Shown: positions 1,426 through 38,778, counted from the stretch's first letter. The stretch: DNA of 41,440 nt from a virus (IMGVR_UViG_3300030397_000570:1-41440), one strand, 5' to 3'. The notes: a model not told the origin generated them from the sequence alone. Translations and numbers: made by a program.

Positions 1426-3195
1426 ATGAAACTACTAAAAGGAAAACTATTTTTAGATAGCGCCACGGGGAAGTTGGAGTTCCATTATCATGGAGAAAAC
1501 GGTGAGCAAACGCTCATGATCAACACAGTTAAAACGGACGAGCTACCTGAATTTGGGCGCTCAATTGAGGCGTTGATAACTGAACCAGAAAATGACATCA
1601 TTGATTGGCAATATCAATTAACCGATATTCCCACACACTCTACTAGAGATATTGTTATCTCAGTTGGATGGGGTCATACCGATACAGAAGAGATTTCACA
1701 CGAACAAGCTGACGAGTGGGCAAACATACTAGCCTCCGAAGCCAGAAGAATTGGGCGCGAGAAATGGAATGTACTAGCTTATGGTGCCGGGTATAGAGAT
1801 TCTGGGTATTCTGGGTTAATGAAAGTCAAGTGGCAAGATTTGGCTAGCGCTGTTAATGAAAGATACCCAGACAGACCTGATAACACTCATTCGACTACCA
1901 TACTTCCCGGCGCTTCAGTATCATTATGCGGGCAGGCTATATTAGGCGGCACGATCAGTTTTAGCCGGAGAGAGTGTGCGACGTTTGGAATGAAGACTCC
2001 TATCCACGAGGCATTAGGACATTCTATAATGGGACTTGAACATGCTGCCAAAGGTAGTTCAGAGTATGGAGAAAGTGACACGTGGATGGGAAGCTCTTCC
2101 AGTTCTAATAGAGAGTTTAGTACTCCACATTTATATCAGGCTGGATTGGTGGAACACAATAATGTTCTAACATTAGTTGCTGGCGAGTCTGTAGAAACGT
2201 GGCTAGTTCAGGGTCACACACAGGCTCAGGCCATGAGATTAGGTGAAAACAAAGCAGTGATTTGTCATGTGGCATCAACTGGCGTTACACGTAGAATTAT
2301 GGTCAGCTATTATAAAAATACCATAAGAATCCACAGGCCGGGATTCGGGGCAACAACTAATTGGGTTAGGACTGATTTGCTGGCCAAATTAAGAAGGGCT
2401 GGAGAAACTTTTGAAACCAACGGGGTGACTGTTGAAGTATTAGAATTGTCCCTGTCCGGAGGCAAGGTGCGAGTGTATAATCAGACGACCTCCCTTCCTA
2501 GACAAGCGCCCAATCCAGTATGGGCCGAACCGGGTCAAGACAGTCCAGTAATCGGAGATTGGGCGCGTGGACAGTGGGGGCACCCTGAGTGGGCCACGGT
2601 CCAAGGAATTCATTTTGGTATGACTTCTACAGGGAAACCGGTTCTGCACTGGCTGACGTGGAACGACCGTATTGCCGGAACACATGAATGGTATTGGGCC
2701 GTATGCGACTTGCAAAATAATGGGCGGCTGGTTACTGGAGACCTTTTAACAGCCGACCACTATGGCCGAGTATCAACTGTGGGAACTGTGAGAGGTTATT
2801 GGTATAACAACAGCGAGGGCATCATTAGAGTGGAATTCGCTAACGGTGACCGGGCTACATGTCCAATTCGTCGAGTATTTCAGGCTCACCCAGATAGTAG
2901 GGCAGGGTATTACGGGATTGGAAATGCTCAAGGCTTAACCTTGAGTCTTAACCAGAGTGGCCACGGGTTGGCCTACTGGTTGTCTCACGAAAATTCTCGC
3001 CAGATATGGAGAATGTGTATTGGAAGCCTAGACAGTATGATCGTATATGAAGTGGAAGGAGGTCAACGGTCAGTTAAAGCCCCATTCAAAATTCGGCCAA
3101 CCGGAACCGCGACGATTAGTAATAATGCCGATACCTTTACCATAAACTTAGATGGTAAAACAAGTGATCAGCGTACTATGAGAAAGCTGGCCTAA
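1426..3195 (+). CDS. Zinc metallopeptidase (M11 gametolysin-like) with duplicated C-terminal beta domain
   Basis: 589 aa; HEALGHSIMGLEH followed by EYGESDTWMG; C-terminal half has two related units (GQWGHP..QGI..HWLTW / GYYG..QGL..YWLSH); TAAATA at 1393-1398. Confidence 0.6.
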   Translation: MKLLKGKLFLDSATGKLEFHYHGENGEQTLMINTVKTDELPEFGRSIEALITEPENDIIDWQYQLTDIPTHSTRDIVISVGWGHTDTEEISHEQADEWANILASEARRIGREKWNVLAYGAGYRDSGYSGLMKVKWQDLASAVNERYPDRPDNTHSTTILPGASVSLCGQAILGGTISFSRRECATFGMKTPIHEALGHSIMGLEHAAKGSSEYGESDTWMGSSSSSNREFSTPHLYQAGLVEHNNVLTLVAGESVETWLVQGHTQAQAMRLGENKAVICHVASTGVTRRIMVSYYKNTIRIHRPGFGATTNWVRTDLLAKLRRAGETFETNGVTVEVLELSLSGGKVRVYNQTTSLPRQAPNPVWAEPGQDSPVIGDWARGQWGHPEWATVQGIHFGMTSTGKPVLHWLTWNDRIAGTHEWYWAVCDLQNNGRLVTGDLLTADHYGRVSTVGTVRGYWYNNSEGIIRVEFANGDRATCPIRRVFQAHPDSRAGYYGIGNAQGLTLSLNQSGHGLAYWLSHENSRQIWRMCIGSLDSMIVYEVEGGQRSVKAPFKIRPTGTATISNNADTFTINLDGKTSDQRTMRKLA

Positions 3196-3206
3196 AAACG
3201 GCTGTC

Positions 3207-3833
3207 TCATGTTTTGATCTTTGATATGTTGTGGCCCATTCCTATCCCCGGCCTTCCGGGGTATCCCTTAATTCCAATAACTCCGTGACTGAAAGGATAT
3301 ATCTTTTTGCTCCCACATTTTTGGTAACGCCATAAATTTATGTCGATAGCGTTTTGGTACTTGCTTAAAATTTTTTTGAACGTATGGAGTGCTGACCCTT
3401 TCATCGCAGTAGAACATAGGCTAGCGTGGTCTCTATTATTCATCATCTTTTCTGTACCATCCAAGTGTCTATACAAACTAGGGGCCTCCCCCACGAGGTC
3501 ATGGGTTTCCAACCACCCAACACATCTACTGATCCACCACGAGGCATAGCAATCGTCATCTTCTACAATAACCACCTTATCATTGTCGAAATCTACCATT
3601 TTTAAGCCTTCCAACAGATTTCTGGCTTGAGTATTTTGGCCCGGTTTCCAAAATGGCTCTGGCCTAATCACTGAAATCTTCCAGTTTTCAACTTCAGGAA
3701 CGGCTGAAGGCGTTCTTCCATCATCAACGATGATCCATTTAACTGGACCTTTGTAATCTTGTTTCTTCATATACTTGATACAATTCGCCCAAGCTTCTGG
3801 ACGCTCTCCGGTAGGCGTGATCACGACTATCAT
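3207..3833 (-). CDS. GT2/GT-A fold glycosyltransferase
   Basis: VITPTGERP, WIIVDDG and VEDDD motifs; start placed at ATG 3833, overlapping the upstream stop (ATGA). Confidence 0.8.
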   Translation of the reverse strand: MIVVITPTGERPEAWANCIKYMKKQDYKGPVKWIIVDDGRTPSAVPEVENWKISVIRPEPFWKPGQNTQARNLLEGLKMVDFDNDKVVIVEDDDCYASWWISRCVGWLETHDLVGEAPSLYRHLDGTEKMMNNRDHASLCSTAMKGSALHTFKKILSKYQNAIDINLWRYQKCGSKKIYPFSHGVIGIKGYPGRPGIGMGHNISKIKT

Positions 3834-4519
3834 CTGATAGCTTTCCACCAATTAATAGAATTGAAAATCTGGGTCTGCACGTTGCTCCTGTTACGATACT
3901 TTGAATATAAAGTGGACTTTTCATCTTGAGGGAGAGGTTTAAGATAGTTCTCTCCATGCTCTATAACAATTCTTTTTTTACCTTGTTGGTGAGCTTGCCA
4001 AGAGACATATATGTCGTCCATAAAATAGTATTTGAACTTTGTGAGATCGATTCTGATTTTGTCGGTGTTCCAACAGCTTACTCCATTTCCTATAACCTCT
4101 ACTTCGGTGTCTCCGACCTTTTTTTCTTTGAAATGGTAATATTCTCTATAGTCTAAAAAATAATTTTTGACTTTCTTGTTTGGAGTGAATAATCTTCCAT
4201 GATGCGACACGATGACATCATTCGAATATTGATCAAGTTTGTCTAACGTGTATCGAACGTAATCTGCCGGATATAATATATCGTCGTCAACGCAAAAATA
4301 GTATTCCCCTCTTCTCATTGCCCAGAACAGTTTTCCTGAAGACTGTAAGTCTTTTCCTAAGACGGTTTTAATTTTTTTATCTAATAATTCCTTTGGAACT
4401 GTGCTATATTTGTTTAGATAAATTCTTATTTCATCCACCTGATCATACAGGGAGTCTACAACCTGTAAACAGGTGTCTAATCTAGTAGGAAAAGTTGCCA
4501 TGTTTGCGGTTATTTTCAT
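3830..4519 (-). CDS. GT-A fold glycosyltransferase
   Basis: MATFPTR..SL.DQVD, FCVDDDILYPADY and MDDIYVS motifs. Confidence 0.8.
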   Translation of the reverse strand: MKITANMATFPTRLDTCLQVVDSLYDQVDEIRIYLNKYSTVPKELLDKKIKTVLGKDLQSSGKLFWAMRRGEYYFCVDDDILYPADYVRYTLDKLDQYSNDVIVSHHGRLFTPNKKVKNYFLDYREYYHFKEKKVGDTEVEVIGNGVSCWNTDKIRIDLTKFKYYFMDDIYVSWQAHQQGKKRIVIEHGENYLKPLPQDEKSTLYSKYRNRSNVQTQIFNSINWWKAIR

Positions 4520-6000
4520 TTTTTGTTGACTTTTTGGAATAGTTTAAATTCAGAAAAACTGGTCGAGCTTTGGTCTTTACCCGGCGAATACCTATAAGGA
4601 TTGGTCCATCGAGAAACCAGAGTAAAATCTGGAGCATTCTTTTGTATCCAATCGCTGTATTTTCTATGTTTAACATGTGGAGATAGTTTTTCTCCCGGCT
4701 CCGGGTCTCTGTCAGAAGAATAGATTAGCACAAATTTTTCAGAACAATTAAGCAGATTTTGCATATATGTATCAAAAACTTCGTCCTCTATAAGGTGAAA
4801 TATTACGTCCAATGACAATGTGAGCGAGGATGAAACATTATTTAAAAGCTCGGTCGGCTGTAACGTATGGAAGTTCCAACCACGATGTTTATATTTGTTA
4901 TTACAGTACTGGACCATCTTTTCCGAAACGTCAAATCCAATATAACTTTCAACGTTGAACAAACTGCATTGATATCCGTCACCGGAACCGAACTCTATCA
5001 TTTTATCAATATGATACTTTTTTATGATCTCATTAACAACACTCGCTTTGTAGTATGCTAACTTCCCTCTAGATCCTTGCCCGGAATGGCCTCCAGTCTC
5101 ATAGCGTGATATCCAATATGAAGTGCTATTAAAATCATCGAGAGTTCGACTGGTCTCTTCCTGTTCGACCTGCGGACTCGTATTATCGTCTGTGTCTTCT
5201 TCGCCCAAAATCAACTGACATTCCACCGGCCTTATTTCAACCGGTCTAACCGTTTTATAGTACCCCGTTTCATTTCTGCGATCTATAGTTTTCGCGATTT
5301 CCCTTCTCTTCTCGGACTGTGGATTTGTTTCAGGGTGTTGTGTTAACGAATTACCATGTATTCTTCGATAAAACATTGGCGTGTTTACATGGTGTATTTT
5401 GAAATGTCGCTCTGAACGAAAACAAAAGTCGCTGTCTGCCCCACACAACCATTCCTCATACCCTCCTAACACCTCATGAACTCTTCTTTTATGACATCCA
5501 ACTCCATCACTGACTTTAGGCTTTGCGACTGGCGGACTTCCTTTTTTGACATTCATGTATTTTATTTTGCATATGTCATATCCACCTTTCATTGCTCTAT
5601 CTACTACATCTAACAGTCCGGGCTTCATGTAATCATCAGAGTCAAAAAAGAAAAGAAAATCTGCCTCTGCTTTCGATATCAGGGTATTTCTGACAATGTA
5701 TGGTCCTCGACGCTCCTTGAAAAAGTAAACTTTGAGCTTTGGGTATTTTGAAGACACCGATATCAACTTGTTCAGGGTATCTTCGCATGAATCCACGCCT
5801 ATCAAAACCTCTTGTAGTAGTGACGGGCTTCTTTTGAAAAGAGATTGCCCGTAGATAGAGTCTAGGCATTCTTCTATAAATTGAGCAGATTTATATGCTG
5901 GGATAATAAAGCTATAAGAGCTTTCAGTTGAATGGTTGGTAGGTTTTAATGGGCTTTTCGTCACGCTTTTTGTTGTTCTGATCCTGTCGGATATCTTCAT
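4516..6000 (-). CDS. GT2 glycosyltransferase fused to class I SAM-dependent methyltransferase
   Basis: N-half IIPAYKS..IEECLDS, FFDSDD, GADSDF; C-half YW..RY..GG.SG.GS, EFGSGDG, IGFDVS, SLDVIFHL. Confidence 0.8.
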   Translation of the reverse strand: MKISDRIRTTKSVTKSPLKPTNHSTESSYSFIIPAYKSAQFIEECLDSIYGQSLFKRSPSLLQEVLIGVDSCEDTLNKLISVSSKYPKLKVYFFKERRGPYIVRNTLISKAEADFLFFFDSDDYMKPGLLDVVDRAMKGGYDICKIKYMNVKKGSPPVAKPKVSDGVGCHKRRVHEVLGGYEEWLCGADSDFCFRSERHFKIHHVNTPMFYRRIHGNSLTQHPETNPQSEKRREIAKTIDRRNETGYYKTVRPVEIRPVECQLILGEEDTDDNTSPQVEQEETSRTLDDFNSTSYWISRYETGGHSGQGSRGKLAYYKASVVNEIIKKYHIDKMIEFGSGDGYQCSLFNVESYIGFDVSEKMVQYCNNKYKHRGWNFHTLQPTELLNNVSSSLTLSLDVIFHLIEDEVFDTYMQNLLNCSEKFVLIYSSDRDPEPGEKLSPHVKHRKYSDWIQKNAPDFTLVSRWTNPYRYSPGKDQSSTSFSEFKLFQKVNKK

Positions 6001-6024
6001 ATAGCTTAAAACATGTCATGCGTT

Positions 6025-6711
6025 TTATTTATGTGATGACAAGCTAAAATATTCTTGAAAGGGTCTCCGTTGTGGAGGATTTGCACTTTTTATCAAGACA
6101 TTTATTTTTTCTTTGAATTCATCCAAACAATAGTTGAAAGACAACTGATCTCTTTTACTAGGTAAAGAAGTGTAGGTAGAATACCAAAAGTCTAAAAACG
6201 GGATCGCTTTAGTTATATTGTTAATCACAATTACCCCTGTTTCACACAGTCCGTTCTTTTTAGGATAGCCCATGTTCTCAAGAATTTTAATGTGCTCTTT
6301 GACCGCCAGCTTTTCATCTTTTTTTAATCGAATGATTTCTTCGGCCTCTCTGTATATACAATCCCGGTCCGGGTGCTTGCCCACAATCATATCGAAACCA
6401 CGATCTATTTGGATGGAAGGAAAGCGTGAAGTGATTTTGTAGCTACCATCCAATAAAATATAACTATCATATTTTAGATCGATATACCTGTAAAATTGCA
6501 TTGAAAGATAGCACGCTCGCCTTTTAGGGCATGTAATGTCCATCGATTCGGGAACCTTAACAGTTGTCCATATAGAATTGGTTGATTGAGTCAGATGTCC
6601 GTCTGTCAAACAGATATAGTCCCAGCCTTCGGCCATCTTTACAGGTTCTTTAAGTGTATCGTAATTTCCTGTTATATACGTTATTACGCAAGATCGAGAC
6701 GTTTGACTCAT
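6025..6711 (-). CDS. DUF616 (TOD1/MUCI70-like) glycosyltransferase-like protein
   Basis: TYITGNYDTL.EP, DYICLTD, HPDRDCIY.EA and RDQLSFNY motifs; start placed at ATG 6711 because the track's extension to 6828 crosses an insertion junction. Confidence 0.8.
   Translation of the reverse strand: MSQTSRSCVITYITGNYDTLKEPVKMAEGWDYICLTDGHLTQSTNSIWTTVKVPESMDITCPKRRACYLSMQFYRYIDLKYDSYILLDGSYKITSRFPSIQIDRGFDMIVGKHPDRDCIYREAEEIIRLKKDEKLAVKEHIKILENMGYPKKNGLCETGVIVINNITKAIPFLDFWYSTYTSLPSKRDQLSFNYCLDEFKEKINVLIKSANPPQRRPFQEYFSLSSHK
6026..6032 (-). promoter_or_regulatory. Late-promoter-like ATAAATA upstream of the GT2-MTase operon
   Basis: TATTTAT overlapping the stop of the upstream gene, 25 nt before the 6000 start. 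Confidence 0.55.
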
Positions 6712-6759
6712 CCTAATATCACGCGGCGGAGACCCCGGCTTCAGCCGGGGGTGGTTGAC
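6712..6759 (-). mobile_element. Collapsed IS200/IS605 (IscB-type) end element: 5' end, hairpin and 3'-end-like tail
   Basis: Minus strand GTCAACCACCCCCGGCTGAAGCCGGGGTCTCCGCCGCGTGATATTAGG|ATGA; hairpin CCCCGGC-TGAA-GCCGGGG; GTCAACYACCCC resembles the recalled 5' end of IscB/HEARO elements. Confidence 0.65.
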
Positions 6760-7222
6760 TATCGATAATCCCCAAAAACACATCAAACTCGATGATACAA
6801 GCATCCCTGTAGACAATATGAGAGACATCCATGTTCTCGATCAATGATCGTGCAAGTGCTATATAGGTTCCCTTCCGATTGACTTTCATCACCAACATCG
6901 GGTGCTTGTCGGCGAACTCGGCATCACTCTTTGCCTGTTCCCACCATTCATCGAAGAGTATCGAAGACCCCGAAAGAAAGTGATGGAACTTGGGTTCGTC
7001 GTTATGGAACTTGCACTCGATGGAGAACGGGAACCAAGAAGGGGTGATGAGATCACCGCTCAGAATGTCTTTTGCGTCTTCTCTGATGTCATGATGCTTG
7101 ACTCTGTTCTTGCCCCCGACGAATGCGCCCGATGTTGGAACTCTTTCGTCGAAAAACTCACTCAATCGCTTTGCCATCTCAAGCTCGAAGCGATTGCCCT
7201 TCTTCTTGCTGTTGACTGTCAT
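6719..7222 (-). CDS. Hjc-like Holliday junction resolvase (PD-(D/E)xK); C-terminus derived from the repeat
   Basis: NSKKKGNRFE, RVPTSGAFVGG, GDL..P and SIECK motifs; last residues SQPPPAEAGVSAA are encoded by the hairpin element. Confidence 0.85.
   Translation of the reverse strand: MTVNSKKKGNRFELEMAKRLSEFFDERVPTSGAFVGGKNRVKHHDIREDAKDILSGDLITPSWFPFSIECKFHNDEPKFHHFLSGSSILFDEWWEQAKSDAEFADKHPMLVMKVNRKGTYIALARSLIENMDVSHIVYRDACIIEFDVFLGIIDSQPPPAEAGVSAA
6742..6760. repeat. 19-nt direct repeat, copy 1 (CAGCCGGGGGTGGTTGACT)
   Basis: Identical to 8969-8987. Confidence 0.95.
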
Positions 7223-7253
7223 GAAGGCATTCCCGTGTTAAGTTGACACATGG

Positions 7254-7278
7254 TTATTTAGAGTCATTATTATAAATA
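7254..7278. promoter_or_regulatory. Divergent late promoters (TAAATAA on -, TATAAATA on +)
   Basis: TTATTTA at 7254-7260 and TATAAATA at 7271-7278, between divergent genes. Confidence 0.7.
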
Positions 7279-7283
7279 GAAGC

Positions 7284-8228
7284 ATGAAAATTCAAAAGAT
7301 CATGGAACTCTTGGAAGAGGCGAAATTCCGCAAACCCGTCATCATGTATCACGGTACGTCTTCGGCGTTTCTGCGTGAAATCCTGAAGAAAGGCATTATT
7401 CCGAACTCAAGGAATGCCGTGTTCGACCATGACGAAGAAGCAACTCCCGATGCCCCTTCCAACAGAACGGTCGGAGGGACTTACTGGACCAAAAACCTTT
7501 TGACCGCATCGAAACATGCTTCTCTTGCCAGACAAAAGTTCTGGGGCGACAAGTTGTATGTTATAGCACAGATCGCCGAACTTTCTGCATTCTCGGACGA
7601 GGACGATGTGGTGTTCAAGATCAACCGTGCCTTCTCGAAGACCATCAAGGAAGTCTTCGGGGTGATAAAGGATGCCTATCATGTCTATATCCCGATTCTG
7701 TTCGATGACAAGAATGTGTACAGGAAGGCACTGAACACCTTCATCGAGTCAGTTCATGAAATTCTCGGTACGGAGAACCAACCCGTTCCTCGCAATCTCC
7801 TGATCGAACTGTTCGAGGCGCACATCGAACGCATCTATGCCTATGTGGGCAATGAGGACACCCGGTTTTATGACATGAGACTGGGAGAGAGGATGAGAGA
7901 GATCGAGAATCCACCGGAACCGATGGACATGGGCGATGCCGAACGTCGCTATTCAATCGTTCTGGACAAACTCACAAGGCATTACACCAAGTTCGCCAGA
8001 CAATCGGATTCCGAGATTGGTCATTCGGTCAGGGTGACGGAACCCGTGACCTATCGTGGGTCAAACAGGATCATTGCTATCATTACGGAAACCGACAAGG
8101 GACAACTTCTTCTGAACTATGGCGATGTCCCGATGAAGTTCATCGAGGACTACAAACGCCACATCAATCACAACTTCCCCGGTATCGTCGATGCGGAGAC
8201 TGGCGAGTACGTCGTAGACCCCGAATAA
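7284..8228 (+). CDS. Putative ADP-ribosyltransferase-fold protein, possibly virion-packaged
   Basis: MYHGTS...ILKKGIIP, GTYWTKNL..A..HA ART-like strands; MKI..IMELLEE leader; late promoter 5 nt upstream. Confidence 0.5.
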   Translation: MKIQKIMELLEEAKFRKPVIMYHGTSSAFLREILKKGIIPNSRNAVFDHDEEATPDAPSNRTVGGTYWTKNLLTASKHASLARQKFWGDKLYVIAQIAELSAFSDEDDVVFKINRAFSKTIKEVFGVIKDAYHVYIPILFDDKNVYRKALNTFIESVHEILGTENQPVPRNLLIELFEAHIERIYAYVGNEDTRFYDMRLGERMREIENPPEPMDMGDAERRYSIVLDKLTRHYTKFARQSDSEIGHSVRVTEPVTYRGSNRIIAIITETDKGQLLLNYGDVPMKFIEDYKRHINHNFPGIVDAETGEYVVDPE

Positions 8229-8258
8229 AAGAAGGGCGAGGTTCTCCCCCGCCCTTCT
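8227..8258. terminator. Intrinsic terminator between convergent genes
   Basis: AGAAGGGCG...CGCCCTTCT stem with flanking A-run. Confidence 0.75.
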
Positions 8259-8279
8259 CGCATCAACAACGAATGAACA

Positions 8280-8570
8280 TTACTCGTCGTCTTCGGCCTG
8301 AACAAGACCAAGGATTTCGAGGAATGCAACGATATCCTCGATCTTGCTCACCTCCTCCGAGGCATTCTGCTTGTAACAGATCGATACCATCTTGTTGAAG
8401 ACTGCCGGTTTGATTTCGGCGATCTCCTTGACATGTTTGGCGATCTCCTTGAGGTGATCCCGTTCGGCATCGATCCGATAGAGGCTGTTGATCGACTCCT
8501 TGATGGCATTGGTGATCTGTTCACGAACATCCGGGGGGATTTGTGTGAACATCGAATCCGAAACACTCAT
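8280..8570 (-). CDS. T4 DsbA-like double-stranded DNA-binding protein
   Basis: 96 aa helical; AIKE...RIDAERD.LKEI...FNKM....YKQN pattern of the phage DsbA family; GGAG RBS. Confidence 0.75.
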   Translation of the reverse strand: MSVSDSMFTQIPPDVREQITNAIKESINSLYRIDAERDHLKEIAKHVKEIAEIKPAVFNKMVSICYKQNASEEVSKIEDIVAFLEILGLVQAEDDE

Positions 8571-8591
8571 CTTGCTTTCTCCTTTCGAGTT

Positions 8592-8968
8592 TTATGACAA
8601 AGGTTGTACATCCCGTACCATGTCTTCCAGTTCCTTTACGATTGCTCGTGCCTTGACAAACTGTTCGTGGTCCCGAGTCTCGTCCGCGATCTTCAAGGCC
8701 CTCAACAACGTCTTCACGAGTTCTTCCGCAGCGACGATGTGATGACGATCTCCGTCCGCCTTGTACATCTTCAAGGAATTCCGAAGATGACGCTTGATAT
8801 CGTCTTCGACGGATATGATAACACCCGGATGAAAGAGTGCAAGCTCATCACGTTCCTGAACTATAACATCGTACAGATACTCTTTCTCGACAAGGACAGA
8901 GAGAACAAACGCTGCCTGATCGTCTGTCGCATCAAAGTGTCTGTGACCATGATAGATGAAGTCTTCCA
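8592..8968 (-). pseudogene. Hypothetical gene, probably 5'-truncated at the repeat junction
   Basis: The frame is open into the repeat and the tRNA; the track's N-terminus is encoded by tRNA and repeat sequence; no RBS-linked native start seen. Confidence 0.55.
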
Positions 8969-8987
8969 CAGCCGGGGGTGGTTGACT
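8969..8987. repeat. 19-nt direct repeat, copy 2 (hairpin truncated in its loop)
   Basis: Identical to 6742-6760; lies 15 nt beyond the tRNA CCA end. Confidence 0.95.
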
Positions 8988-9002
8988 GTGGGCAGGCAAT
9001 AT

Positions 9003-9077
9003 TGGAGCGACCAGTGGGACTCGAACCCACATCATCGGCTTGGAAGGCCGAGGTAATAGCCTTTATACGATGGTCGC
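9003..9077 (-). tRNA. tRNA-Gly(TCC)
   Basis: GCGACCA...TGGTCGC acceptor stem, CTTCCAA anticodon loop, GTTCGAGTC T-loop, encoded CCA; 75 nt. Confidence 0.95.
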
Positions 9078-9209
9078 AATGTAGGCTTTTATATTTATCA
9101 AGATGTCTTTTGTTTTGTCTTTAATCCAGTTAAAATAGAAACCGAAATTAAAAATGAGATCATATATTGATGCAAGTAAGACTAACTCTGCCGCGCAAAA
9201 ATGAATCAT
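9063..9209 (-). CDS. Small hydrophobic protein (48 aa)
   Basis: Below track cutoff; GGAGG RBS 5 nt before an ATG that directly follows the upstream TGA; MIHFCAAELVLLASIYDLIFNFGFYFNWIKDKTKDILINIKAYIATIV. Confidence 0.55.
   Translation of the reverse strand: MIHFCAAELVLLASIYDLIFNFGFYFNWIKDKTKDILINIKAYIATIV
9092..9098 (-). promoter_or_regulatory. Late-promoter-like ATAAATA upstream of tRNA-Gly
   Basis: TATTTAT 14 nt upstream of the tRNA 5' end. Confidence 0.55.
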
Positions 9210-10028
9210 TCAGACCTCCATATATTTTTTGAATTCATCTTTCAATATTCTATCAGCTTCAGGAATAATTTGCTCTACTCCGGCGGCATACCACCCAGAA
9301 CAACTAAAGCTATTTATCTCAAGAATTTTTATTTTTTTGTCCTCTGTCATTGCCATATCCAATGTCCATAACCTGTCCGGCGTCCACTTAACAGCTTCTA
9401 AAATGTTATTCACCTTTGTATGAACTTCTGAAGGAATGTTTCTGTCTTCAACGATCTCTTGACCGACCATGTATCTTGATGCGCCTATGATCTTTTTGTC
9501 CCCTATAACGAAGCGGTATTCTTCTAATATATTTTGAGCCTTAGATATTAACACCATTGTCGAAGGATCGATGTTTTTAAGCTGCTTAAGGCAATCTATT
9601 TCATATTCTACAGTGTCAATAGTCCAAACACTCCCGGTGAAAGGCTTAGCTCCGCTATCCGGTCTGAAAAATAAAGAATTTTCCCCCATAAGCCTAAAAT
9701 AGTATTCCGGGTTTCCTTCTATATCATCGATAGTTGAATAAACGTGAGTTCCATTTAAAAATTCATTTCGATCAAGGCCCATCAATGACATGTATACACT
9801 GCATTTAAATTTTAATTCGTCGTAAAAGCATCCCGTATAGTGTCTAAGACGTGGTATACAGTTTAATGGGACATAGACCATAACAGGGTCTTTGTTCTCC
9901 AATGGCAGATCAATTTTCCCCATCATCAGTCCGACATAATCGACAGTATCGTATTCTATACCATATTTTTCAAATACCTCTTTAGGTATTTTCGATTCCG
10001 GGAACATTACTTTATCTATTAGCCACAT
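9210..10028 (-). CDS. ATP-grasp domain protein (R2K clade / DUF4343-like)
   Basis: FFRPDSGAKPFTG, EYRFVI, TLDMA and ILEINSFSCSGWY motifs. Confidence 0.8.
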   Translation of the reverse strand: MWLIDKVMFPESKIPKEVFEKYGIEYDTVDYVGLMMGKIDLPLENKDPVMVYVPLNCIPRLRHYTGCFYDELKFKCSVYMSLMGLDRNEFLNGTHVYSTIDDIEGNPEYYFRLMGENSLFFRPDSGAKPFTGSVWTIDTVEYEIDCLKQLKNIDPSTMVLISKAQNILEEYRFVIGDKKIIGASRYMVGQEIVEDRNIPSEVHTKVNNILEAVKWTPDRLWTLDMAMTEDKKIKILEINSFSCSGWYAAGVEQIIPEADRILKDEFKKYMEV

Positions 10029-10561
10029 GCTTTTTTATTCTCCAGATATGATAACATTACTTCGGCCTTAGAATTTTTGATGGTATCTATGAATTCTACG
10101 TTGGTCCTAGTAGTTTTTATAGGTAACAGTAACTGTTCTTTGAACATGGCCTCTACATAGCCGTTATCTATAATCGCGCTATACCTCCAAGACCTCATTC
10201 CCATTCCACAGAACCTGTTATCAAACATCATTCCCATACCAGAAGTAAAGTCGCCATTCCCGTCACAAATCATCTCCAAGTTGTCGATCTCCAAATGATC
10301 AAACCATGCTGACATCACGTTGGGATCGTTTACGGAAACACAGTAAACTTCATCTACGTCGTTGAAACAGATATCATAATATGATTCATCATACTCGACG
10401 ACTTGGGCGTCGGTCTCCTTCGACGCAAAGGCTCCCGGAACAGCGATTATTGCTACTCTTTTCGATTCAAATAAGTCCAGAACCGAGGTCAAAATGAAAT
10501 CACCCTCGTCGTTTCTGGTGAACACTGTCGCCCAAAAGGGGACAGAAATTATGTTGTTCAT
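10019..10561 (-). CDS. Peroxiredoxin (Prx5/redoxin)-like protein lacking the peroxidatic Cys
   Basis: PGAF, YCVSVND..VM.AW, DGNGDFT and GMRSWRYS motifs; PGAFASKE replaces PGAFTPTC. Confidence 0.8.
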   Translation of the reverse strand: MNNIISVPFWATVFTRNDEGDFILTSVLDLFESKRVAIIAVPGAFASKETDAQVVEYDESYYDICFNDVDEVYCVSVNDPNVMSAWFDHLEIDNLEMICDGNGDFTSGMGMMFDNRFCGMGMRSWRYSAIIDNGYVEAMFKEQLLLPIKTTRTNVEFIDTIKNSKAEVMLSYLENKKACG

Positions 10562-10842
10562 GAAACCTCCTTTCTTGTTAAAAAGTCATACACAGTGCAG
10601 ACTCGCAATTCTTCATTAGGGTCTTGTGTCTCACAACTATTAGAATTTTCTTGAGAGTCTGAACCCACTGCATCTAAAACATTTAAAAACGATCTATATT
10701 CACTGACAAACGCTTCCGTTTCCTGATCATTTAGACCTTCTTGTATTGCTACAAAGTACGGTTCAAGATCAATATAAATCTTAGTAACTTGATCTTTTGT
10801 GAGTTCTACGGTTTCTCCGTTAATGTCAATAATGTATTTCAT
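10558..10842 (-). CDS. Hypothetical protein
   Basis: 94 aa; AGGA RBS; ATGA overlap with the next gene. Confidence 0.7.
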   Translation of the reverse strand: MKYIIDINGETVELTKDQVTKIYIDLEPYFVAIQEGLNDQETEAFVSEYRSFLNVLDAVGSDSQENSNSCETQDPNEELRVCTVYDFLTRKEVS

Positions 10843-10902
10843 GTGTATTTTCCTTTTTTAAGATTTAATGAAGGTTGTTGTAAAATAGTATAGGATATTG
10901 TA

Positions 10903-11403
10903 TCAAATTTTGTCAACAGCTTCTGATAGATTTTTCCAAAAGTCTTTACTAGACTGGCTTTTGTATATGTATTTTCCATTGCGGTCTCTTACCCAAAAAG
11001 CTCTAGCTGGTCTGGCCCCTATATCTAGATGGATCATTGGTTGGGGTTGAATTCTGTTGATGTTTGTATCTAAATACAACCCTATTCCTGTCCATGAAGG
11101 TATTTCTACCGCGCAAAGCCAAAAGTCTAATACGTTTTTAGAAGGGAATACATCTACGGCTTGTCCCATACTTCCGTCACCTATGTAATGTCTACTAGTT
11201 TTCGATCCACTTCTTCGTACTAGGCCATCTGGATTTTGGCTAGGGTAGACTGGATGCCCGAACCGTTTTCTAGTAATATCCAGTAATTGAATTACTTCGC
11301 TCTTGACGAATTTAAGATCTTCCGGACGGGGCCATTCATCAACCGAAAACGAAGATGTCTCGGCATTTTGAATAAGATACTCGTATGCGTTACTATATTT
11401 CAT
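10903..11403 (-). CDS. Peptidase M15 family protein (possible endolysin)
   Basis: R....S.H......AVD, GIGLY and IHLD zinc-peptidase motifs. Confidence 0.75.
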   Translation of the reverse strand: MKYSNAYEYLIQNAETSSFSVDEWPRPEDLKFVKSEVIQLLDITRKRFGHPVYPSQNPDGLVRRSGSKTSRHYIGDGSMGQAVDVFPSKNVLDFWLCAVEIPSWTGIGLYLDTNINRIQPQPMIHLDIGARPARAFWVRDRNGKYIYKSQSSKDFWKNLSEAVDKI

Positions 11404-15591: not shown

Positions 15592-16776
15592 ATGAATAAA
15601 ACATTTAAGTGTGATACCTGTAATCTCACCACGGCAGACCCGCCATCTATAGGCGGCCTGAACATAAACTTTTGTAATATAACGCAAGGATGTACGGGCA
15701 AGCTTTATTTAATATCGGATCGAGGCGACTCTGACGAAGACAATGATCTGACACAATATAGAAAATTACTATACGTACATAAACAGCAGATAAAATCTGA
15801 CAAATGGATTGTTGACCATAATTTGAATGCTCATCCAGTTGTTGACGTTTTTATTGAAACTGACGATGGTGGAATTACTAGACTGACAAAAGAAAACTTT
15901 TCAGTTTTTTACAATTCAAATAATAGGATAGAAATTTCATTTTCGTCTCCATATTCCGGGAGGGCCGACTTAATATCTAGAAACGTAACTACGGGCTCTA
16001 TCGATACCTTAAAACCTACAGACAGTCTAATACCTGTGTCCTACAACGGGACTCTTGCGTTCGCTGTTCCATCTATATATTTCGACACGTCCACGAATCC
16101 GGAAACAGTGATATACACTAATGGGACCATACAAATAGATATTGTGATAGAAGAGCCAACAGAAGAGCCGATTTTTTGCACTGAGATATTAGAAAATACC
16201 GACGCTGGACAATCGCCGTGGAACGACTATCAGGCTATACTTTTCCGGAAAAGAAGAAACTTTAACATCAAAACAAAAAAATTGCTTGATTTTAAGGTTA
16301 TAAAAGATAGATATTCTTCACTAAGAGACATACCTGAACTTACAAAGTTCAAAATACAGAAAATAAATTTCTATTCTCCGGACTCTGAAGGAGTTTTTGT
16401 CGATATCAAATCTAAACAACTGCTGCTATTATTAGCAAGAAGTCCATTCGATAAGGTAGACAAAGATTTAAACAATGTAATTGATATCGGGGAAGTCAAT
16501 GATGGTGAAATACCATATTTCGTGTTTGTTAATGGGGTCTTACACTCAGACAAATCTAACATTGAAAGGGTTTACCCGAAAATAGAAAAGGCGTTAAGAG
16601 TGGTAGAAGAGCCGATTCCTGTCACCCCGCCGGACCCCACTCCGACACCTACGCCGGACCCCACTCCGACGCCGACACCCACGCCGACACCTACGCCTAG
16701 CCCAAGTCCTAACCCACAGCCATCTCTAATATGGGTCGATACAACGTTCGATTGGAATGCTGGACCTATTGGATAA
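15592..16776 (+). CDS. Putative virion structural protein with N-terminal Cys motif and C-terminal Pro/Thr repeat
   Basis: CDTC...C....C; H.Q...S.KW.V.HNL..HP.V.V module common in phage structural proteins; PT repeat; late promoter. Confidence 0.65.
   Translation: MNKTFKCDTCNLTTADPPSIGGLNINFCNITQGCTGKLYLISDRGDSDEDNDLTQYRKLLYVHKQQIKSDKWIVDHNLNAHPVVDVFIETDDGGITRLTKENFSVFYNSNNRIEISFSSPYSGRADLISRNVTTGSIDTLKPTDSLIPVSYNGTLAFAVPSIYFDTSTNPETVIYTNGTIQIDIVIEEPTEEPIFCTEILENTDAGQSPWNDYQAILFRKRRNFNIKTKKLLDFKVIKDRYSSLRDIPELTKFKIQKINFYSPDSEGVFVDIKSKQLLLLLARSPFDKVDKDLNNVIDIGEVNDGEIPYFVFVNGVLHSDKSNIERVYPKIEKALRVVEEPIPVTPPDPTPTPTPDPTPTPTPTPTPTPSPSPNPQPSLIWVDTTFDWNAGPIG
16624..16722 (+). repeat. Low-complexity (PT)n/(PS)n coding repeat
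   Basis: TPPDPTPTPTPDPTPTPTPTPTPTPSPSPNPQP; GCCGGACCCCACTCCGAC occurs twice with 24-nt period. Confidence 0.9.
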
Positions 16777-20214: not shown

Positions 20215-21822
20215 TCAAGACTCTTTTCTAAGCCCTTTAGAATAATGAAAGCATCTATCATGGATTATGGGGCTTACCAATAGGCAACCGGCTTTAATCT
20301 TTTTTTCCCGCAAAAGTTTTTGGACATTTGCCATAAGAGCACCTTCGTTCGACAAACTGTTTTCTATAAAAACCTTTCTGTTTCCTTGCTTAGAGAACAA
20401 TATAGGCCAATTACAATAAAAAAACTCCCCTACAAGATACGAAAGGCCCTGAAAGCTCCCTCCATGATGTATCTTGGTAAGCTTGCCCGACTCTAAAACT
20501 TCCGAGTTTAAATATTTCTCTCTCAAATTTGCATTAAAATGGTGCCATGACCAATTTTTAAAATTGTCTCCGTAAAATTCTGTAAAACTGAGCTTTAAAT
20601 AATCTAGGCTTTCTGCCTCAAGTATGGATAAAGCTTTAGAGAATAGGTCTTCATCTTTCATGGGCAGCCCATTTCTGCATCGCCCATCCTTGTCGGTCAG
20701 TATCATATCATCTTCAAAAAAGATCATATAGGAATGAGACGACTGGTCAAAATGCTTTGCCGCGAATCTTCTTCCTCCAGATATTCCTAAATTATCGAAC
20801 TTGAATTCTGTTATATTATGCTGGGAACATATCTCTTTATACTCATCCTCAAAAGAATCATCTGTAGAGTTATTGATCAAATACTTTGTGGATGTCTGGA
20901 AAAACTGCTTGTGCGCAGTTAGAAAGGCGTCGATTTGTTTCTTAAGTTGGTCAGGTGAGTTAAATGTTAAAAAGTATATTGCAATTTCATTTTCGTTATA
21001 TGATTCATTCTTCAACTTTTCAAAAAATGGACCTATAAGGCCATTGGAATCTACCATTTCAATTTTAGTATATTCAGGATACAGATAAGATATTATAGTA
21101 AAAAGACTTTCTTCTGTCCCCATATATCCATGCTTAAGAGTGTCCACCATTAGATCATAATATATCTCATTTATTTTTCTTATAGCAGATTTATGACCTC
21201 CAAAAAATCCTCCTCTACATACCCGCGTGACTGTATGGGCTGCATAACGGTCAATAGCCTGCTTGTGAAATCCATGTATTTCAGTGTTTGTGTGATAGGG
21301 GAAGCCGATATAAATCATTTTCCCACATCTGGCCTTTTTAGCTAATTTAAGATCGAAGATCGGATCGTATAAGATGCTTACATCAACGGTTGAAGATATG
21401 CCCGCGTCTATCCAAAAAAAGTATTCTGTATTAAAATGGTTCCATATAGAGGCGTCGTGCAGCATGAACTGTTTACTCATGACCAGACAGTTATAGTGTT
21501 CTAGCCTTGCTTGAGGACTTTCTTTCAACCACGCGGTCTGATTGAACCACGTTGGGTCAGAGCGGATCTTTTCTATCTCTTCCTTAAATTGAGCATCGAC
21601 GGACCTGTTAACAATAACAGTCTTAGACATGTCTTTTCTTATAGACTTAACAAAATCTATGACCTTTTTTTGATTACAGAACACGACCAAATTGATATCG
21701 GCTCGTAGCAGTTTTTCGAAATTTAGAAAATATTCGTTTAATGTGCGTTTAAACTGCCCGTTTAAAGAAGACCGTTCTATGTCGTATAACGCGGTAACAT
21801 ACGTTATATTAGATTGGCTCAT
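20215..21822 (-). CDS. HtrL/YibB-like glycosyltransferase fused to a GT-A domain
   Basis: TYVTALYDI.R, Y..LVMSK, FFWIDAG, GGFFGG and GTEE motifs; second domain with IFFEDD. Confidence 0.75.
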   Translation of the reverse strand: MSQSNITYVTALYDIERSSLNGQFKRTLNEYFLNFEKLLRADINLVVFCNQKKVIDFVKSIRKDMSKTVIVNRSVDAQFKEEIEKIRSDPTWFNQTAWLKESPQARLEHYNCLVMSKQFMLHDASIWNHFNTEYFFWIDAGISSTVDVSILYDPIFDLKLAKKARCGKMIYIGFPYHTNTEIHGFHKQAIDRYAAHTVTRVCRGGFFGGHKSAIRKINEIYYDLMVDTLKHGYMGTEESLFTIISYLYPEYTKIEMVDSNGLIGPFFEKLKNESYNENEIAIYFLTFNSPDQLKKQIDAFLTAHKQFFQTSTKYLINNSTDDSFEDEYKEICSQHNITEFKFDNLGISGGRRFAAKHFDQSSHSYMIFFEDDMILTDKDGRCRNGLPMKDEDLFSKALSILEAESLDYLKLSFTEFYGDNFKNWSWHHFNANLREKYLNSEVLESGKLTKIHHGGSFQGLSYLVGEFFYCNWPILFSKQGNRKVFIENSLSNEGALMANVQKLLREKKIKAGCLLVSPIIHDRCFHYSKGLRKES

Positions 21823-23225
21823 TTGTCTTTAATAACTACTTCGACTCTATCTAGCCATCCTAAAGTCTCACTATGAGGCCACAGGACATAAGAATGGGGC
21901 TTTCCTTTGTGCGTAAAGGCGATATTGTAATGTATAAAGCCGTGGGGAGATCTCATATGTTCTTCAAATTGAGATTTCGTGAGGTCTCTTCTAAACAACT
22001 CTTTACCATCTTTGTCATGTACCCCAACGGCACAAAAATCGATATCATCAATTAGCTTCCCTCCGTCTTCGAAGCATTTTGGAAATTCGCTTTTATGAAC
22101 ACATATTATTACGTCATGAGACCCTATAAAGGAATTTTTCCATTCTTCTTCTGTGGCGTATTTAAAATTCACTGGAGGCATCTTTCGGTCCAAAGTTTCT
22201 TGCTGAGCCCCTCTATACTCAAAGCTTATACCGGCATATTCTTCATACTCTCTTAATGTTCTTACATTTCCGAATCCATATTTTCCAAAATCTATTTCAA
22301 CATTTGGGTCTTTCTCCATCCCGAAAAGAATCCGGTTTCTGCGCAGAGAGGAAAGGTTTCGCTCGGTCCAGTCACTATCCACTAACCCTTTCTTTTTGTT
22401 TTCGGGAGTGTGCTCGTCCCACATTTTAACCCTACCAGATCTAGTATATTCATGCCACGCTACTAGACGGTGAGGTGAATAAATGTCGTAACCATGTGTA
22501 AAAGCCCTAACCGAGATCGATATTTCCTCGCCGTGGAAATAATAGTTCGGGTCGTGTTGCACCTCTATAGAAAATTTCCCGTCCGTGAACGCAAAATGAC
22601 CGGAATAAAATCTAGCACGAGGCGGGGTATCGATGTCTTTCCATTCGTCCAAATATCTAGGCATGAAAAACACAACTCCTTCTGGTGTGAATCTGTCGAA
22701 TTCTGTGTAGCAAGGTATCTGTCCCCTATTATCTGGATCGTTTTTTGGGTCATATGCCGGAAGATAGCTTGTTATAATAGGCTTTTCTGATTTCACCTTA
22801 CACTGTTCATACATTTTTTTCAGTAAAGTGTCCCAGCCCTTCACAAATCGATGATGTGAGTCTAAGTGGAGGGTAAATTTTTCTCCATCATACGTTTGCT
22901 GAATCATGTTTCTAGCCCAACAGGCACCTTTAGATTTCCTATAATCAACGTCTATGAACTCTACAACTGCCCCATCTTTTTCAAGCACCAAAACTTCATA
23001 TTCTTTTATGCCTTCTTCGTGGTCCGCGTGTCTGAACGTCTTCGTGTCGATGACTTCTAGCTCGGCGTCAAGGATATCATCAACAGTCTGTTCCTCTCCG
23101 TGCTGCCAACACACAACAATCCGTAAGTTATTTGGCTCATCTGAATTTCCGATAAGGTCAAGAATCGTTGGGAATAACTCAGGATCTTTATACGATGCGA
23201 TCTGTACGAATATGTCTTCTTTCAT
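21819..23225 (-). CDS. GT60-like GlcNAc transferase (Skp1 hydroxyproline GlcNAc-transferase family)
   Basis: IFVQIASYKDPEL..T, GACWAR, LDSHHRF..GWD, SGHFAF, FHGEEI...RAFTHGYD and RTL.EYE. Confidence 0.85.
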   Translation of the reverse strand: MKEDIFVQIASYKDPELFPTILDLIGNSDEPNNLRIVVCWQHGEEQTVDDILDAELEVIDTKTFRHADHEEGIKEYEVLVLEKDGAVVEFIDVDYRKSKGACWARNMIQQTYDGEKFTLHLDSHHRFVKGWDTLLKKMYEQCKVKSEKPIITSYLPAYDPKNDPDNRGQIPCYTEFDRFTPEGVVFFMPRYLDEWKDIDTPPRARFYSGHFAFTDGKFSIEVQHDPNYYFHGEEISISVRAFTHGYDIYSPHRLVAWHEYTRSGRVKMWDEHTPENKKKGLVDSDWTERNLSSLRRNRILFGMEKDPNVEIDFGKYGFGNVRTLREYEEYAGISFEYRGAQQETLDRKMPPVNFKYATEEEWKNSFIGSHDVIICVHKSEFPKCFEDGGKLIDDIDFCAVGVHDKDGKELFRRDLTKSQFEEHMRSPHGFIHYNIAFTHKGKPHSYVLWPHSETLGWLDRVEVVIKDK

Positions 23226-35082: not shown

Positions 35083-35108
35083 AAAAGGCCCATATAAATA
35101 TGGGCCTT
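35083..35108 (-). terminator. Intrinsic terminator after the tail tube gene
   Basis: AAGGCCCATAT-AA-ATATGGGCCTT, followed by a T-run on the minus strand. Confidence 0.75.
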
Positions 35109-35838: not shown

Positions 35839-35856
35839 TGATAAATATATTTATCA
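35839..35856. promoter_or_regulatory. Perfect 18-bp palindrome with late-promoter cores on both strands
   Basis: TGATAAATATATTTATCA between divergent genes. Confidence 0.65.
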
Positions 35857-36642: not shown

Positions 36643-38778
36643 TTATGTGTTGCTCACGATGCTTCCAGCCGATCCGATATCTGCTGCAAAGTCCACCACC
36701 CGTATCGGGACATAGATGAACTCGACCGCTGTAATCGGTTTTAAGGCGACATCGATCCACAGTTCTTTTCGCTGCACTCTGTCAGGAGTATTGTTGCTCT
36801 CATCACAGATAGTCGCAAAGTCGAACAAGGCCCTGTCGTTTATTAGGCTTGCCAAGAAATTGTCTACCGTAGTTTTAACCTGATCACGTGTAATCTGGTC
36901 ATTTGGCTCAAACAGATAAGGGAACACTCCTCTACGGATTTCGCGCTTAATGAACCTTAACAAGCGTTCTATGTTCACGGATTCTCTCGGAGAAGTCGCA
37001 GGATTGACGGTTTTTTGCCCTAAAATTAATATTCCTCTACCAGCTATTCGGGTGATAGGGTTTATGTTTTTCGGGAATTCGTACAAAGAGTCTCTCTTTC
37101 CTACGTCCAAATCATCTTCCACGAACTCTGTTGGCCCGCCAAGAACTCCTGAAACGTATCCAGTTTTTGTCAAGTGAGGACACAATCCTCGCTCCACCCC
37201 AGCGGGAGCATACCACAACGCTTCTTCTCGGTCGTTGAACGCATAAGCTCTTAGTGCTGTTGCTGCGGATGTGGTCAAAATGTTTCTACCATCAATATTG
37301 CTGGATATTCCATGACCGAAATAGTACGCAGCACCCGGGTAGGTTGTGCGTTCAGATGACAGTGCCCAAGTTGAAATACCATTAAAACCTGTTGGAGGCT
37401 TATCAAATGGGGTTTCACCTATCACAAAGACTTCATCTAACATCTCGGTTGCCATACGGTTGAGTTCATCAACTAGCTCATGATAGCCCGGAGCAACCAA
37501 CAAGTTGAACGAATAGGCGTCAGGGTTTCTTAGGCCGAGTGTCGGATCGTTGATAGCTTTCTGTAACTGAACAACAATCTCTGCCCTTCTTTCAGCGTCG
37601 TTTTCTCCGAGGCTTGTGTGGTTTCTAAACTCCCTCGTCAGTTCGTATTCAGAAGCCGCAGTTGTAAGAATACTAACAACACTGTCGCATGTGTATGTAA
37701 CACTGTCGCTTATCGCGTTGAATAGGCCATTGAAGCTTCCTGTAGCCGCGTTTTCGTAACCGTCGGCAAATATCAGGAGAGGGTTAGGTCCAGTCCCCTG
37801 AACAGGGTCTGCAATAAATTGGAACAGATTCAATGAACTGAACAAGCCGGTTGACCCTGAAACGTTTTCATCTATTGATATGGATGAAGTGACACCAGCA
37901 AATAGCGAACTAACTCGAAGCCTTCCGGCCAAAAACTCTATAGTTGCCGAACCTGAAAGGGCAGTGTTAATTTCGTCGATTAGCTCACCAAAGGTTTGCG
38001 CATCTTGTCCTTGAACCGTTACGACCTGTGCGGCACCGCCGTCAACTTCTATACTGAAGGAATAAAGTGTTGTGTCGTTGTTCAAGCCAGTAACGTCGTT
38101 TGTAGTTAGAAATCCGCCACTGGTGTCAAACACAATTTCTTGATAGCCCGGTCTCGCAACCGAATGGTCATCTAAAAAGTCATCCTTGAACAGGTTGTTA
38201 TTTCCAGTTCTTCCTTTTGACGAGAACGAATAGCATTCAAAAACATCAATCAATGCTTCTTCTAATAGTATCTTGACATCACTGCCTTGGATTTCATTGA
38301 CTGCGGCAGGTCCAAACAAGCCGTTTTCTTCGTTGTATTCTTCTAGATAGTCATCAAACAACTCACATAGATAATCTGATGCAGACGATATTTTAGATTG
38401 CCACAGCTTTCTCAATCCGGCAATGCTGTCATCAAGGTTAACATTTGCTCTAACCACATACGCCCGATTTCCGACTTCCAAGAATTTAACCAAGGCGTCA
38501 AGCCCGTATTCATTTCTGGCATCCCCGTGAAACGGTTGTCCATCCGCACTTTCCAAATATCTAGGAATGCCATAAAGCTCGATTGCTTGGCGAATGGAGG
38601 TGACCTCACGAAACACTCCATACTCATACGTACCTAACGCCGGAGTTACTCCGTCAGGTTGCGTCTTTTGGTCAGCCGTTGCTATGAATATTACAGGTAT
38701 TGTTCCTGCTCGACCGGGAATAAAGAACGCCTGATCGTCTATTGTTACACTTACACCGGGACTAATTAAGCTTGCCAT
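36643..38778 (-). CDS. Tail sheath protein (gp18-like)
   Basis: LISPGVSV, WYAPAG..RG, INPI, GQKT, NIERL, FEPND, DESNNTP and KP..AVEFIY. Confidence 0.95.
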   Translation of the reverse strand: MASLISPGVSVTIDDQAFFIPGRAGTIPVIFIATADQKTQPDGVTPALGTYEYGVFREVTSIRQAIELYGIPRYLESADGQPFHGDARNEYGLDALVKFLEVGNRAYVVRANVNLDDSIAGLRKLWQSKISSASDYLCELFDDYLEEYNEENGLFGPAAVNEIQGSDVKILLEEALIDVFECYSFSSKGRTGNNNLFKDDFLDDHSVARPGYQEIVFDTSGGFLTTNDVTGLNNDTTLYSFSIEVDGGAAQVVTVQGQDAQTFGELIDEINTALSGSATIEFLAGRLRVSSLFAGVTSSISIDENVSGSTGLFSSLNLFQFIADPVQGTGPNPLLIFADGYENAATGSFNGLFNAISDSVTYTCDSVVSILTTAASEYELTREFRNHTSLGENDAERRAEIVVQLQKAINDPTLGLRNPDAYSFNLLVAPGYHELVDELNRMATEMLDEVFVIGETPFDKPPTGFNGISTWALSSERTTYPGAAYYFGHGISSNIDGRNILTTSAATALRAYAFNDREEALWYAPAGVERGLCPHLTKTGYVSGVLGGPTEFVEDDLDVGKRDSLYEFPKNINPITRIAGRGILILGQKTVNPATSPRESVNIERLLRFIKREIRRGVFPYLFEPNDQITRDQVKTTVDNFLASLINDRALFDFATICDESNNTPDRVQRKELWIDVALKPITAVEFIYVPIRVVDFAADIGSAGSIVSNT

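Follow-up and report, generated by a model that had tools for sequence, protein, structure and literature searches.

A block of foreign-style, phage-like genes beside tRNA-Gly in a large myophage, with an insertion sequence end at both joints

The viral record IMGVR_UViG_3300030397_000570 (41,440 bases, about 12% complete), which in its entirety is the window analysed here, encodes tail sheath and tail tube proteins, a head-closure nuclease, DNA polymerase, thymidylate synthase and a glycosyltransferase cluster; the recipient is a large myophage. Between the start codon of a resident glycosyltransferase-like gene and the sole tRNA gene lie a short element made of the ends of an IS200/IS605-type insertion sequence (IS), a 2.2-kb block of genes of foreign style, and a truncated second copy of one of the element's ends. 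This arrangement is read as a real, recent-looking horizontal transfer with an IS end at both joints, most likely a one-off event.

The two joints share an exact direct repeat of 19 nucleotides (6742-6760 and 8969-8987), as the first-pass annotation of this DNA had reported. Such a repeat is not expected by chance: when the window was simulated 100 times with a Markov model, any exact repeat of at least 18 nucleotides appeared twice. The element accounts for 18 of the 19 bases, other copies having other bases in front. The nineteenth is flank, and the element is fixed at 6712-6759, because the contig L011 contains 47 of the 48 bases of the same 48-mer, ahead of ATGA and between unrelated flanks, with no flanking duplication. 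The abrupt change in composition claimed at the repeat was borne out by trinucleotide jumps of 0.43 and 0.53 at the joints (mean 0.24 and maximum 0.40 at 75 background points) and by codon use. The GC content of third codon positions is 0.53-0.67 in the four open reading frames (ORFs) of the block and 0.26-0.50 in the 40 other ORFs of the window, and NTA codons make up 1-4% and 4.2-12.4%, respectively. A Markov model trained on 7100-8600 placed change points at 6778 and 9053, its central part being circular and its right edge blurred by the tRNA, and rated the held-out stretches 6801-7100 and 8601-8900 as inside-like. The GC content inside (48.4%) is close to the 50% first counted, but the adjoining 2.2-kb stretches (38.6% and 38.0%) exceed the 30-35% given for them, and the remainder of the window is at 40.0%; GC by itself is not decisive, since 500-bp windows at 2251-3000 likewise reach 50-52%. 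CTAG is indeed missing from the block and occurs 112 times elsewhere in the window; its avoidance was rejected as a separate signal, as the Markov expectation for the block is only 1.4 and the absence follows from a general TA depletion. No further copy of the four block ORFs occurs within the window. By composition and gene content, the block reads as foreign in style and derived from a phage-like donor, as first proposed.

The resolvase-like gene of the block retains its conserved nuclease core whole, while its last 13 residues are encoded by element sequence; three of seven homologues end only a few residues past the position of the joint. A late-promoter motif, TATAAATA, ends 5 bases ahead of the ATG of the adjacent gene, and the presence of one copy in the block and nine in the resident DNA of the window supports the earlier remark that both use the same motif. 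The initial assignments of the resolvase-like gene, DsbA and the ORF fragment held, and the product of 7284-8228 can be called ADP-ribosyltransferase (ART)-like only weakly, from a PTS_2-RNA match of 18 bits (cut-off 26), a DarT-like cluster scoring 0.91 by features and a TM value of 0.45. The stem-loop that follows is a probable terminator, which was not called by the hairpin scan and has a loop longer than 8 bases. The last ORF is taken as truncated at its 5' end, given its openness to the joint, its block-like codon style and its lack of relatives. These features suggest a donor phage with a T4-type late promoter and DsbA, and the three whole genes of the block are predicted to be expressible from their own promoters. 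Coordinates are collected in Table 1.

Table 1. Features at the glycosyltransferase/tRNA-Gly locus (positions are those of the window)
Feature	Position	Strand	Basis or remark
Glycosyltransferase-like gene, resident (PF04765)	6025..6711	-	start codon falls in the ATGA targeted by the element
Target motif TCAT (ATGA on minus strand), outside the element	6708..6711	+	N/ATGA targets of ISC elements, PMC4810608
Terminal-only PATE, 48 bp: left-end tail, one hairpin, right-end tail	6712..6759	+	47/48 copy in L011; ends match L003
Resolvase-like nuclease, PD-(D/E)XK (PF24608, phrog_244)	6719..7222	-	profile match E 5e-30 (PDDEXK_15/phrog_244)
Left-end guide GAGA at hairpin foot	6729..6732	+	right-end guide CAAG not present
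Single hairpin, 7-bp stem, 4-base loop	6733..6750	+	sequence, conservation
Right-end cleavage motif TGAC, first copy	6756..6759	+	spacing as in IS608, PMC3201880
Foreign-style block, 2209 bp	6760..8968	.	composition, codon use, gene calls
Sigma-70-like match 7243-7270 (10/12), then TATAAATA late-promoter motif 7271-7278	7243..7278	+	consensus matches only
ADP-ribosyltransferase-fold-like protein, 314 aa	7284..8228	+	weak assignment
Stem-loop, 9-bp, between convergent ART-like and dsbA genes	8230..8258	.	read from sequence
DsbA, T4-type dsDNA-binding protein	8280..8570	-	Phage_DsbA E 7e-13; strong ribosome site
ORF of unknown family, open to the joint	8592..8968	-	codon style of block; 5' truncation inferred
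Truncated right end, 18 bp: half loop, one hairpin arm, TGAC	8969..8986	+	no partner arm, no guide
tRNA-Gly(TCC), resident	9003..9077	-	sole tRNA; neither duplicated nor interrupted; 16 bases from joint

The element at 6712-6759 is short and non-coding, with a near-terminal palindrome, no terminal inverted repeats and no target duplication, as in terminal-only palindrome-associated transposable elements (PATEs). Its halves match both ends of a 477-bp element in contig L003 and meet in a shared 7-bp hairpin arm; as judged from sequence, it is a fusion of both ends of an IsrB-type ISC element within that arm. The 27-mer 6733-6759 has matches at three viral loci. In L003 it opens the 477-bp element, which contains a HEARO-like region (29.5 bits, below the cut-off of 83) and a short ORF remnant, and ATGA follows its opposite end, which matches window 6707-6750. 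Over 151 nucleotides, the remnant shares 98.7% identity with an ORF of L088, which has an RRXRR domain, no HNH match at E 0.1 and a partial, sub-threshold IscB match. Under the definition in PMC13565253, the family would therefore be IsrB-like (ISC1) and not IscB. The exact left-end motif was found in no genome contig and at one viral locus, and the PATE had no match in annotated phages. L011 is binned in an archaeal metagenome-assembled genome yet encodes a baseplate-J protein, so it yields no host assignment.

The TCAT ahead of the element agrees with the N/ATGA targets known for ISC elements (PMC4810608) and, together with a covariation between guide and target described below, identifies the ends as those of the ISC family; the first proposal of IS200/IS605-type ends and an ATGA target is thus supported by the L003 and L011 copies and by a wider set of sites. 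Since bioRxiv 10.1101/2023.03.14.532601 calls the omegaRNA side the right end, the plus strand of the window is taken as the active strand. The spacings here are 21 and 9 bases, similar to the 19 and 10 of IS608 (PMC3201880). Folding z-scores of the ends against shuffles were not significant (0.12, -1.35 and -1.02), and the case for the hairpin accordingly rests on conservation. No omegaRNA and no IscB or IsrB ORF was found in the window; these occur only in the relatives L003, L038 and L088. Searches for Y1_Tnp, RRXRR and integrase were negative in this record of about 12% completeness (the RRXRR search had no working positive control; that for PF00589 matched 14 of 14). The earlier statement that no integrase, TnpA or IscB is encoded holds for the fragment at hand, with the correction that the family nuclease is IsrB-like. 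An integrase-type island at the tRNA gene was rejected, as PF00589 had no match and neither copy of the repeat overlaps the tRNA gene.

The ATGA target coincides with a gene's start codon in each of the three family copies (window 6711; L003, about 2550; L011, 1705), and therefore the element replaces the 5' leader of that gene. For the glycosyltransferase-like product of the window, all nine homologues examined begin within a few residues of the same methionine. Right-end relics of the family occur at L001:2953-3027 and L002:2870-3027 (75 and 158 bases), neither record having a left end elsewhere, and at L088:1056-1120, where a 28-nucleotide right end directly precedes the right end of a related IsrB-like element with no cargo between.

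In viral and metagenome contigs, a degenerate pattern matched 75 times, at 64 distinct sites (L006-L010, L012-L081). These are single-hairpin PATEs of the IscB/IsrB type, 45-59 bp long, that have lost the right-end guide. ATGA or GTGA follows 56 of them (background 15%), and the 7-bp arms are mismatched at 40, which would be expected if the two arms derive from different hairpins. Target and hairpin-foot base covary, A occurring with TCAT in 34/34 cases and G with TCAC in 13/14; this count leaves out 16 sites with no or ambiguous target and includes related sites that are not independent, and by distinct tails it becomes 27/0 and 1/12. CAAG stands at the hairpin foot in all seven right ends of long elements examined, three of which are from one family. 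The layout of the window, with a partial end upstream, recurred at none of the 64 other PATE sites (a screen of 140 kb, with upstream sequence of at least 2.3 kb at 32 sites). Same-family ends were present 0.7-3.2 kb from a PATE at six sites (L008, L030, L033, L038, L046 and L067), and identical short PATEs stand at unrelated sites in L016/L050 and L056/L073, which fits mobility or repeated deletion alike. L008 (also L009, L013 and L069) has two near-identical direct PATEs 3168 bases apart, a possible composite substrate. L023, L055 and L068 have a common 55-nucleotide upstream flank, the downstream flank of L023 being different; this may be a flank exchange at the PATE or an assembly join.

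The guide CAAG presumably fits the cleavage motif TGAC under the IS608 pairing pattern. That pattern agrees with the AAAG/TTAC pair given in PMC3201880, where four-base guides at the 5' foot of each hairpin read the cleavage sites, and TnpA requires both hairpin and guide (PMC3201880; bioRxiv 2023.03.14.532601). The left end of the 6712-8986 unit has a hairpin, a guide and an adjacent target motif. At its outer right end only half a hairpin is present, and the four bases before it are TCCA where the guide would be CAAG. Because both right ends lack the CAAG guide and the distal one is half a hairpin, the unit as it stands is probably not TnpA-mobile. The first-pass view of the 2.25 kb as a non-autonomous cargo element is therefore not upheld: the distal half hairpin has no guide, the intact hairpin has the left-end guide only, the 48-bp piece is itself a complete element of a described kind, and there was no recurrence in the 64-site set.

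No close relative of any block protein was found. The best protein matches of the resolvase-like nuclease were at 50% (eight proteins), with one locus at 31% in viral contigs, where the ART-like protein had none. The ORF fragment 8592-8968 matched only itself and two weak repeat-like sequences among 1.84 billion proteins, with no match among longer proteins or in the Atlas. The suggested BLAST for a donor carrying the element in its resolvase gene returned no match of the block in 50,697 phage records, and the predicted empty site, 8987 adjoining 6711, was found nowhere searched. Nor was another copy or relative of the 6712-8986 unit found; the other ATGA flanks joining the left end in two sequencing runs (X2 and X3, below) were not assignable. 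In the search for the empty site, the ATP-grasp gene had no relative in viral contigs, glycosyltransferase homologues reached at most 42%, and all five flank-protein clusters found were single-member. The surroundings of the SCTP-2 homologue added no information.

The joints were followed in three runs of one study (X1, X2 and X3), which were assembled separately and are possibly the source data, not independent support. Joins in their contigs are at 31-letter words, and the findings apply among the pieces listed. Each run has a single contig that passes through the tRNA-side joint (X1 7088-11000, X2 8882-9489, X3 7376-9111), with no branch to a donor continuation or an uninterrupted flank; a false join there from the repeat is unlikely, because the shared 18-19 bases are shorter than the 31-letter words. 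The joint between PATE and cargo is likewise inside single contigs (X1 6710-7117, X2 6710-7057, X3 6708-7405). All three runs break at 6708-6739, which is a branch point: the interior of a long element with the letters of L003 leaves behind 6739 in X1 and X2, and other flanks starting with ATGA enter before 6708 in X2 and X3. In X1, the glycosyltransferase side is the only flank, also for the long element, yet no allele links that element to the tRNA side; in X3, PATE plus cargo is the only interior. The joint at 6711 is probably genuine, but it is where the assembly is least secure. Even if 6711 were mis-joined, the insertion beside the tRNA would hold. A run of another study (X4) has pieces of both flanks, 96-100% alike, in seven low-depth contigs, none in 6683-9085 and none joining across, which were not counted as evidence. 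X3 also contains a related tRNA 3' part with a different trailer (window 9001-9033, loose ends).

The reading we favour, with a probability of about 0.55, is that the block came from another phage, the shared IS end serving as homology for one crossover and the other joint being formed illegitimately at the hairpin tip. An IsrB-type ISC element, or its terminal-only PATE, would have entered just behind tRNA-Gly, at the ATGA with which the glycosyltransferase gene starts, and a same-family element would have stood at the 3' end of the resolvase-like gene of the donor; in the block, the right end abuts codon 154. The resident element may then have broken at or near its hairpin. Hairpin-cutting recombination nucleases of phage or host are candidates for such a breakage. 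The left-end side would have paired with the right-end hairpin of the donor and copied 2.2 kb of donor flank, and this copy, ending inside a donor ORF, would have been fused at the loop centre to the half of the resident right end that was left. The donor would be a co-infecting phage, and the scheme would need one element per phage and one repair event with two joints. A left-right hairpin crossover inside one element would give the common 45-59 bp PATEs; here two molecules, or two PATEs, would have taken part, and the product would be unable to move on. Core deletion between terminal palindromes is described in PMC3119063. The first-pass annotation had named recombination at the hairpin as one route, which is supported here, and the beginning of the foreign block in mid-ORF (8592-8968 is open at the joint) was counted in its favour. 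Several points weigh against this reading. The order of events is one that we infer, as no donor, empty site or element-only allele was found, and composite transposition with a later deletion would leave an identical sequence. The link at 6711 to the glycosyltransferase side is not spanned at 31-letter words. The composition jump across 25 PATE sites (0.26) is at the level of background (0.27, p 0.73), so PATEs are not general mosaic boundaries; the idea that they mark mosaic joints in general was rejected, an outlier, L007, showing no lasting shift and no second end. The missing right-end guide may not be fatal to mobility either, because the six strain-specific insertions in PMC3119063 were all terminal-only PATEs, of 52 bp, identical PATEs stand at unrelated sites, and GstTnpA can cut at a more distant end motif (bioRxiv 10.1101/2023.03.14.532601).

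It is unlikely, though the main rival and to be weighed seriously, that composite transposition from the donor and a later deletion left the same sequence. The unit is bounded precisely by a target motif on one side and an end motif on the other, same-family ends near a PATE are not rare, truncated right-end relics exist in the family (75, 158 and 28 nucleotides), and the chemistry is known, with flexible end choice shown for GstTnpA. However, more steps would be needed (two donor insertions, core deletion, transposition and a second deletion ending at the loop centre), the right-end guide and second hairpin are absent today, no second example exists in 64 sites, and no TnpA was found in this record, which is only about 12% complete. 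Equally doubtful is the wider proposal that composite or end-slippage transposition of an IsrB-type IS200/IS605 element carried core genes (resolvase, DsbA and an ART-like effector) from one large lytic phage to another as single-stranded cargo; if true, it would be a natural case of HUH-driven gene capture between unrelated phages, with 48-bp single-hairpin PATEs as mobile ends. The branch point at 6708-6739, with its entering flanks and departing long element, is also what would be expected if the insertion by the tRNA were real and the contigs had been mis-joined through the shared left end of 30-32 bp, the PATE continuing to another ATGA flank and the glycosyltransferase cluster following the long copy. 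We consider this improbable, since X1 lists only the glycosyltransferase flank, X3 only PATE plus cargo interior, and X4 has pieces of both flanks together. The depth in X2 also agrees with the pairing as assembled, the remainder being 82,330 where a swap would need 133,858; depth is a weak guide given randomly amplified libraries and the hidden records assumed.

Random-amplification primer ends, a very uneven depth and the possibility that the runs are the source data might suggest that two phages of the sample were combined into a chimera, by assembly or amplification, to give the whole block, but the tRNA-side joint is unbroken in 3/3 runs, unbranched and too short for the word length, and we regard a chimera as very improbable. 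No more credible is the explanation that the block genes are native and merely flanked by two IS relics. The four ORFs have no second copy in the window, and the block has the late-promoter motif of the resident DNA; however, resident copies may exist beyond this fragmentary record, the codon and dinucleotide use of the block is not within the range of the other 40 ORFs, its edges coincide with the two ends, and an ORF is cut at the joint.

Other features of the window lie apart from this locus. Several glycosyltransferase-like genes occur at 3207-6711 and 20215-23225, one fused to a methyltransferase domain and most without an obvious ribosome site. An exact 15-nucleotide repeat links 37930-37944, in the tail sheath gene, with 41425-41439, the last bases of the contig, by chance or as a contig-end artefact. 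An 18-bp perfect palindrome (35839-35856) lies upstream of ORF 35879, a TATAAATA motif stands within the loop of a GC stem near 35093 (region 35087-35105), and ORF 15592-16776 has tandem repeats of the Pro-Thr type at 16604-16709.

The element resembles the terminal-only PATEs of IS605-type transposons in Haloquadratum (HqIRS46, ISHwa23), which are about 50 bp long with one palindrome, no inverted ends and no target duplication, are made by deletion between similar terminal palindromes, and whose palindromes are also hit by other insertions (PMC3119063). In contrast to these, the window has an IsrB-type ISC parent, a phage host, and 2.2 kb of another genome plus half an end after the PATE. With the ISC1/IsrB group it shares the 5' GTCAA end on the omegaRNA side, subterminal hairpins and the N/ATGA target (PMC4810608; PMC13565253), and the relatives L003, L038 and L088 add a HEARO-like RNA region (below the Rfam cut-off) and an RRXRR protein without HNH match; unlike the ISC transposons described, the window has ends only, with no omegaRNA, nuclease or transposase. 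In the flank capture by ISGst2 through an alternative end motif (bioRxiv 10.1101/2023.03.14.532601), an outer copy of the end motif likewise bounds extra DNA, but there an intact right-end hairpin and guide direct the cut, whereas the window has neither and its outer copy comprises 18 bases lying 2.2 kb away. Recombination at a short shared stem-loop is already known as a route of gene exchange from the promoter early stem-loops (PeSLs) of the T4-type phages RB49 and phi1 (PMC2839356), where such a repeat is the crossover point. PeSLs are described there as multi-copy promoter-terminator cassettes between non-essential genes of close relatives, whereas in the window an IS end forms the repeat, the illegitimate joint cuts through a gene, and the two phages are far apart in composition. 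PeSL shuffling was rejected for the window, as the repeat occurs only twice and has no promoter match. Within titles and abstract openings, subscription papers and preprint supplements excepted, no description of an inter-phage transfer bounded by ISC/IS605 ends was found.

The 64-site set provides a ready test of whether single-hairpin PATEs can be moved by TnpA, a point left open in PMC3119063, because in these PATEs the guide of the left end is retained and that of the right end is lost. When large lytic phages are too divergent to recombine in the ordinary way, gene exchange between them is usually deduced from mosaics in which the joints have been eroded. At this locus the two joints are preserved to the base, and each coincides with an IS end. 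Although a single case and probably not a mobile unit, the locus suggests that IS200/IS605 ends, where phages have them in common by way of the same host, can serve as portable homology for inter-phage transfers.

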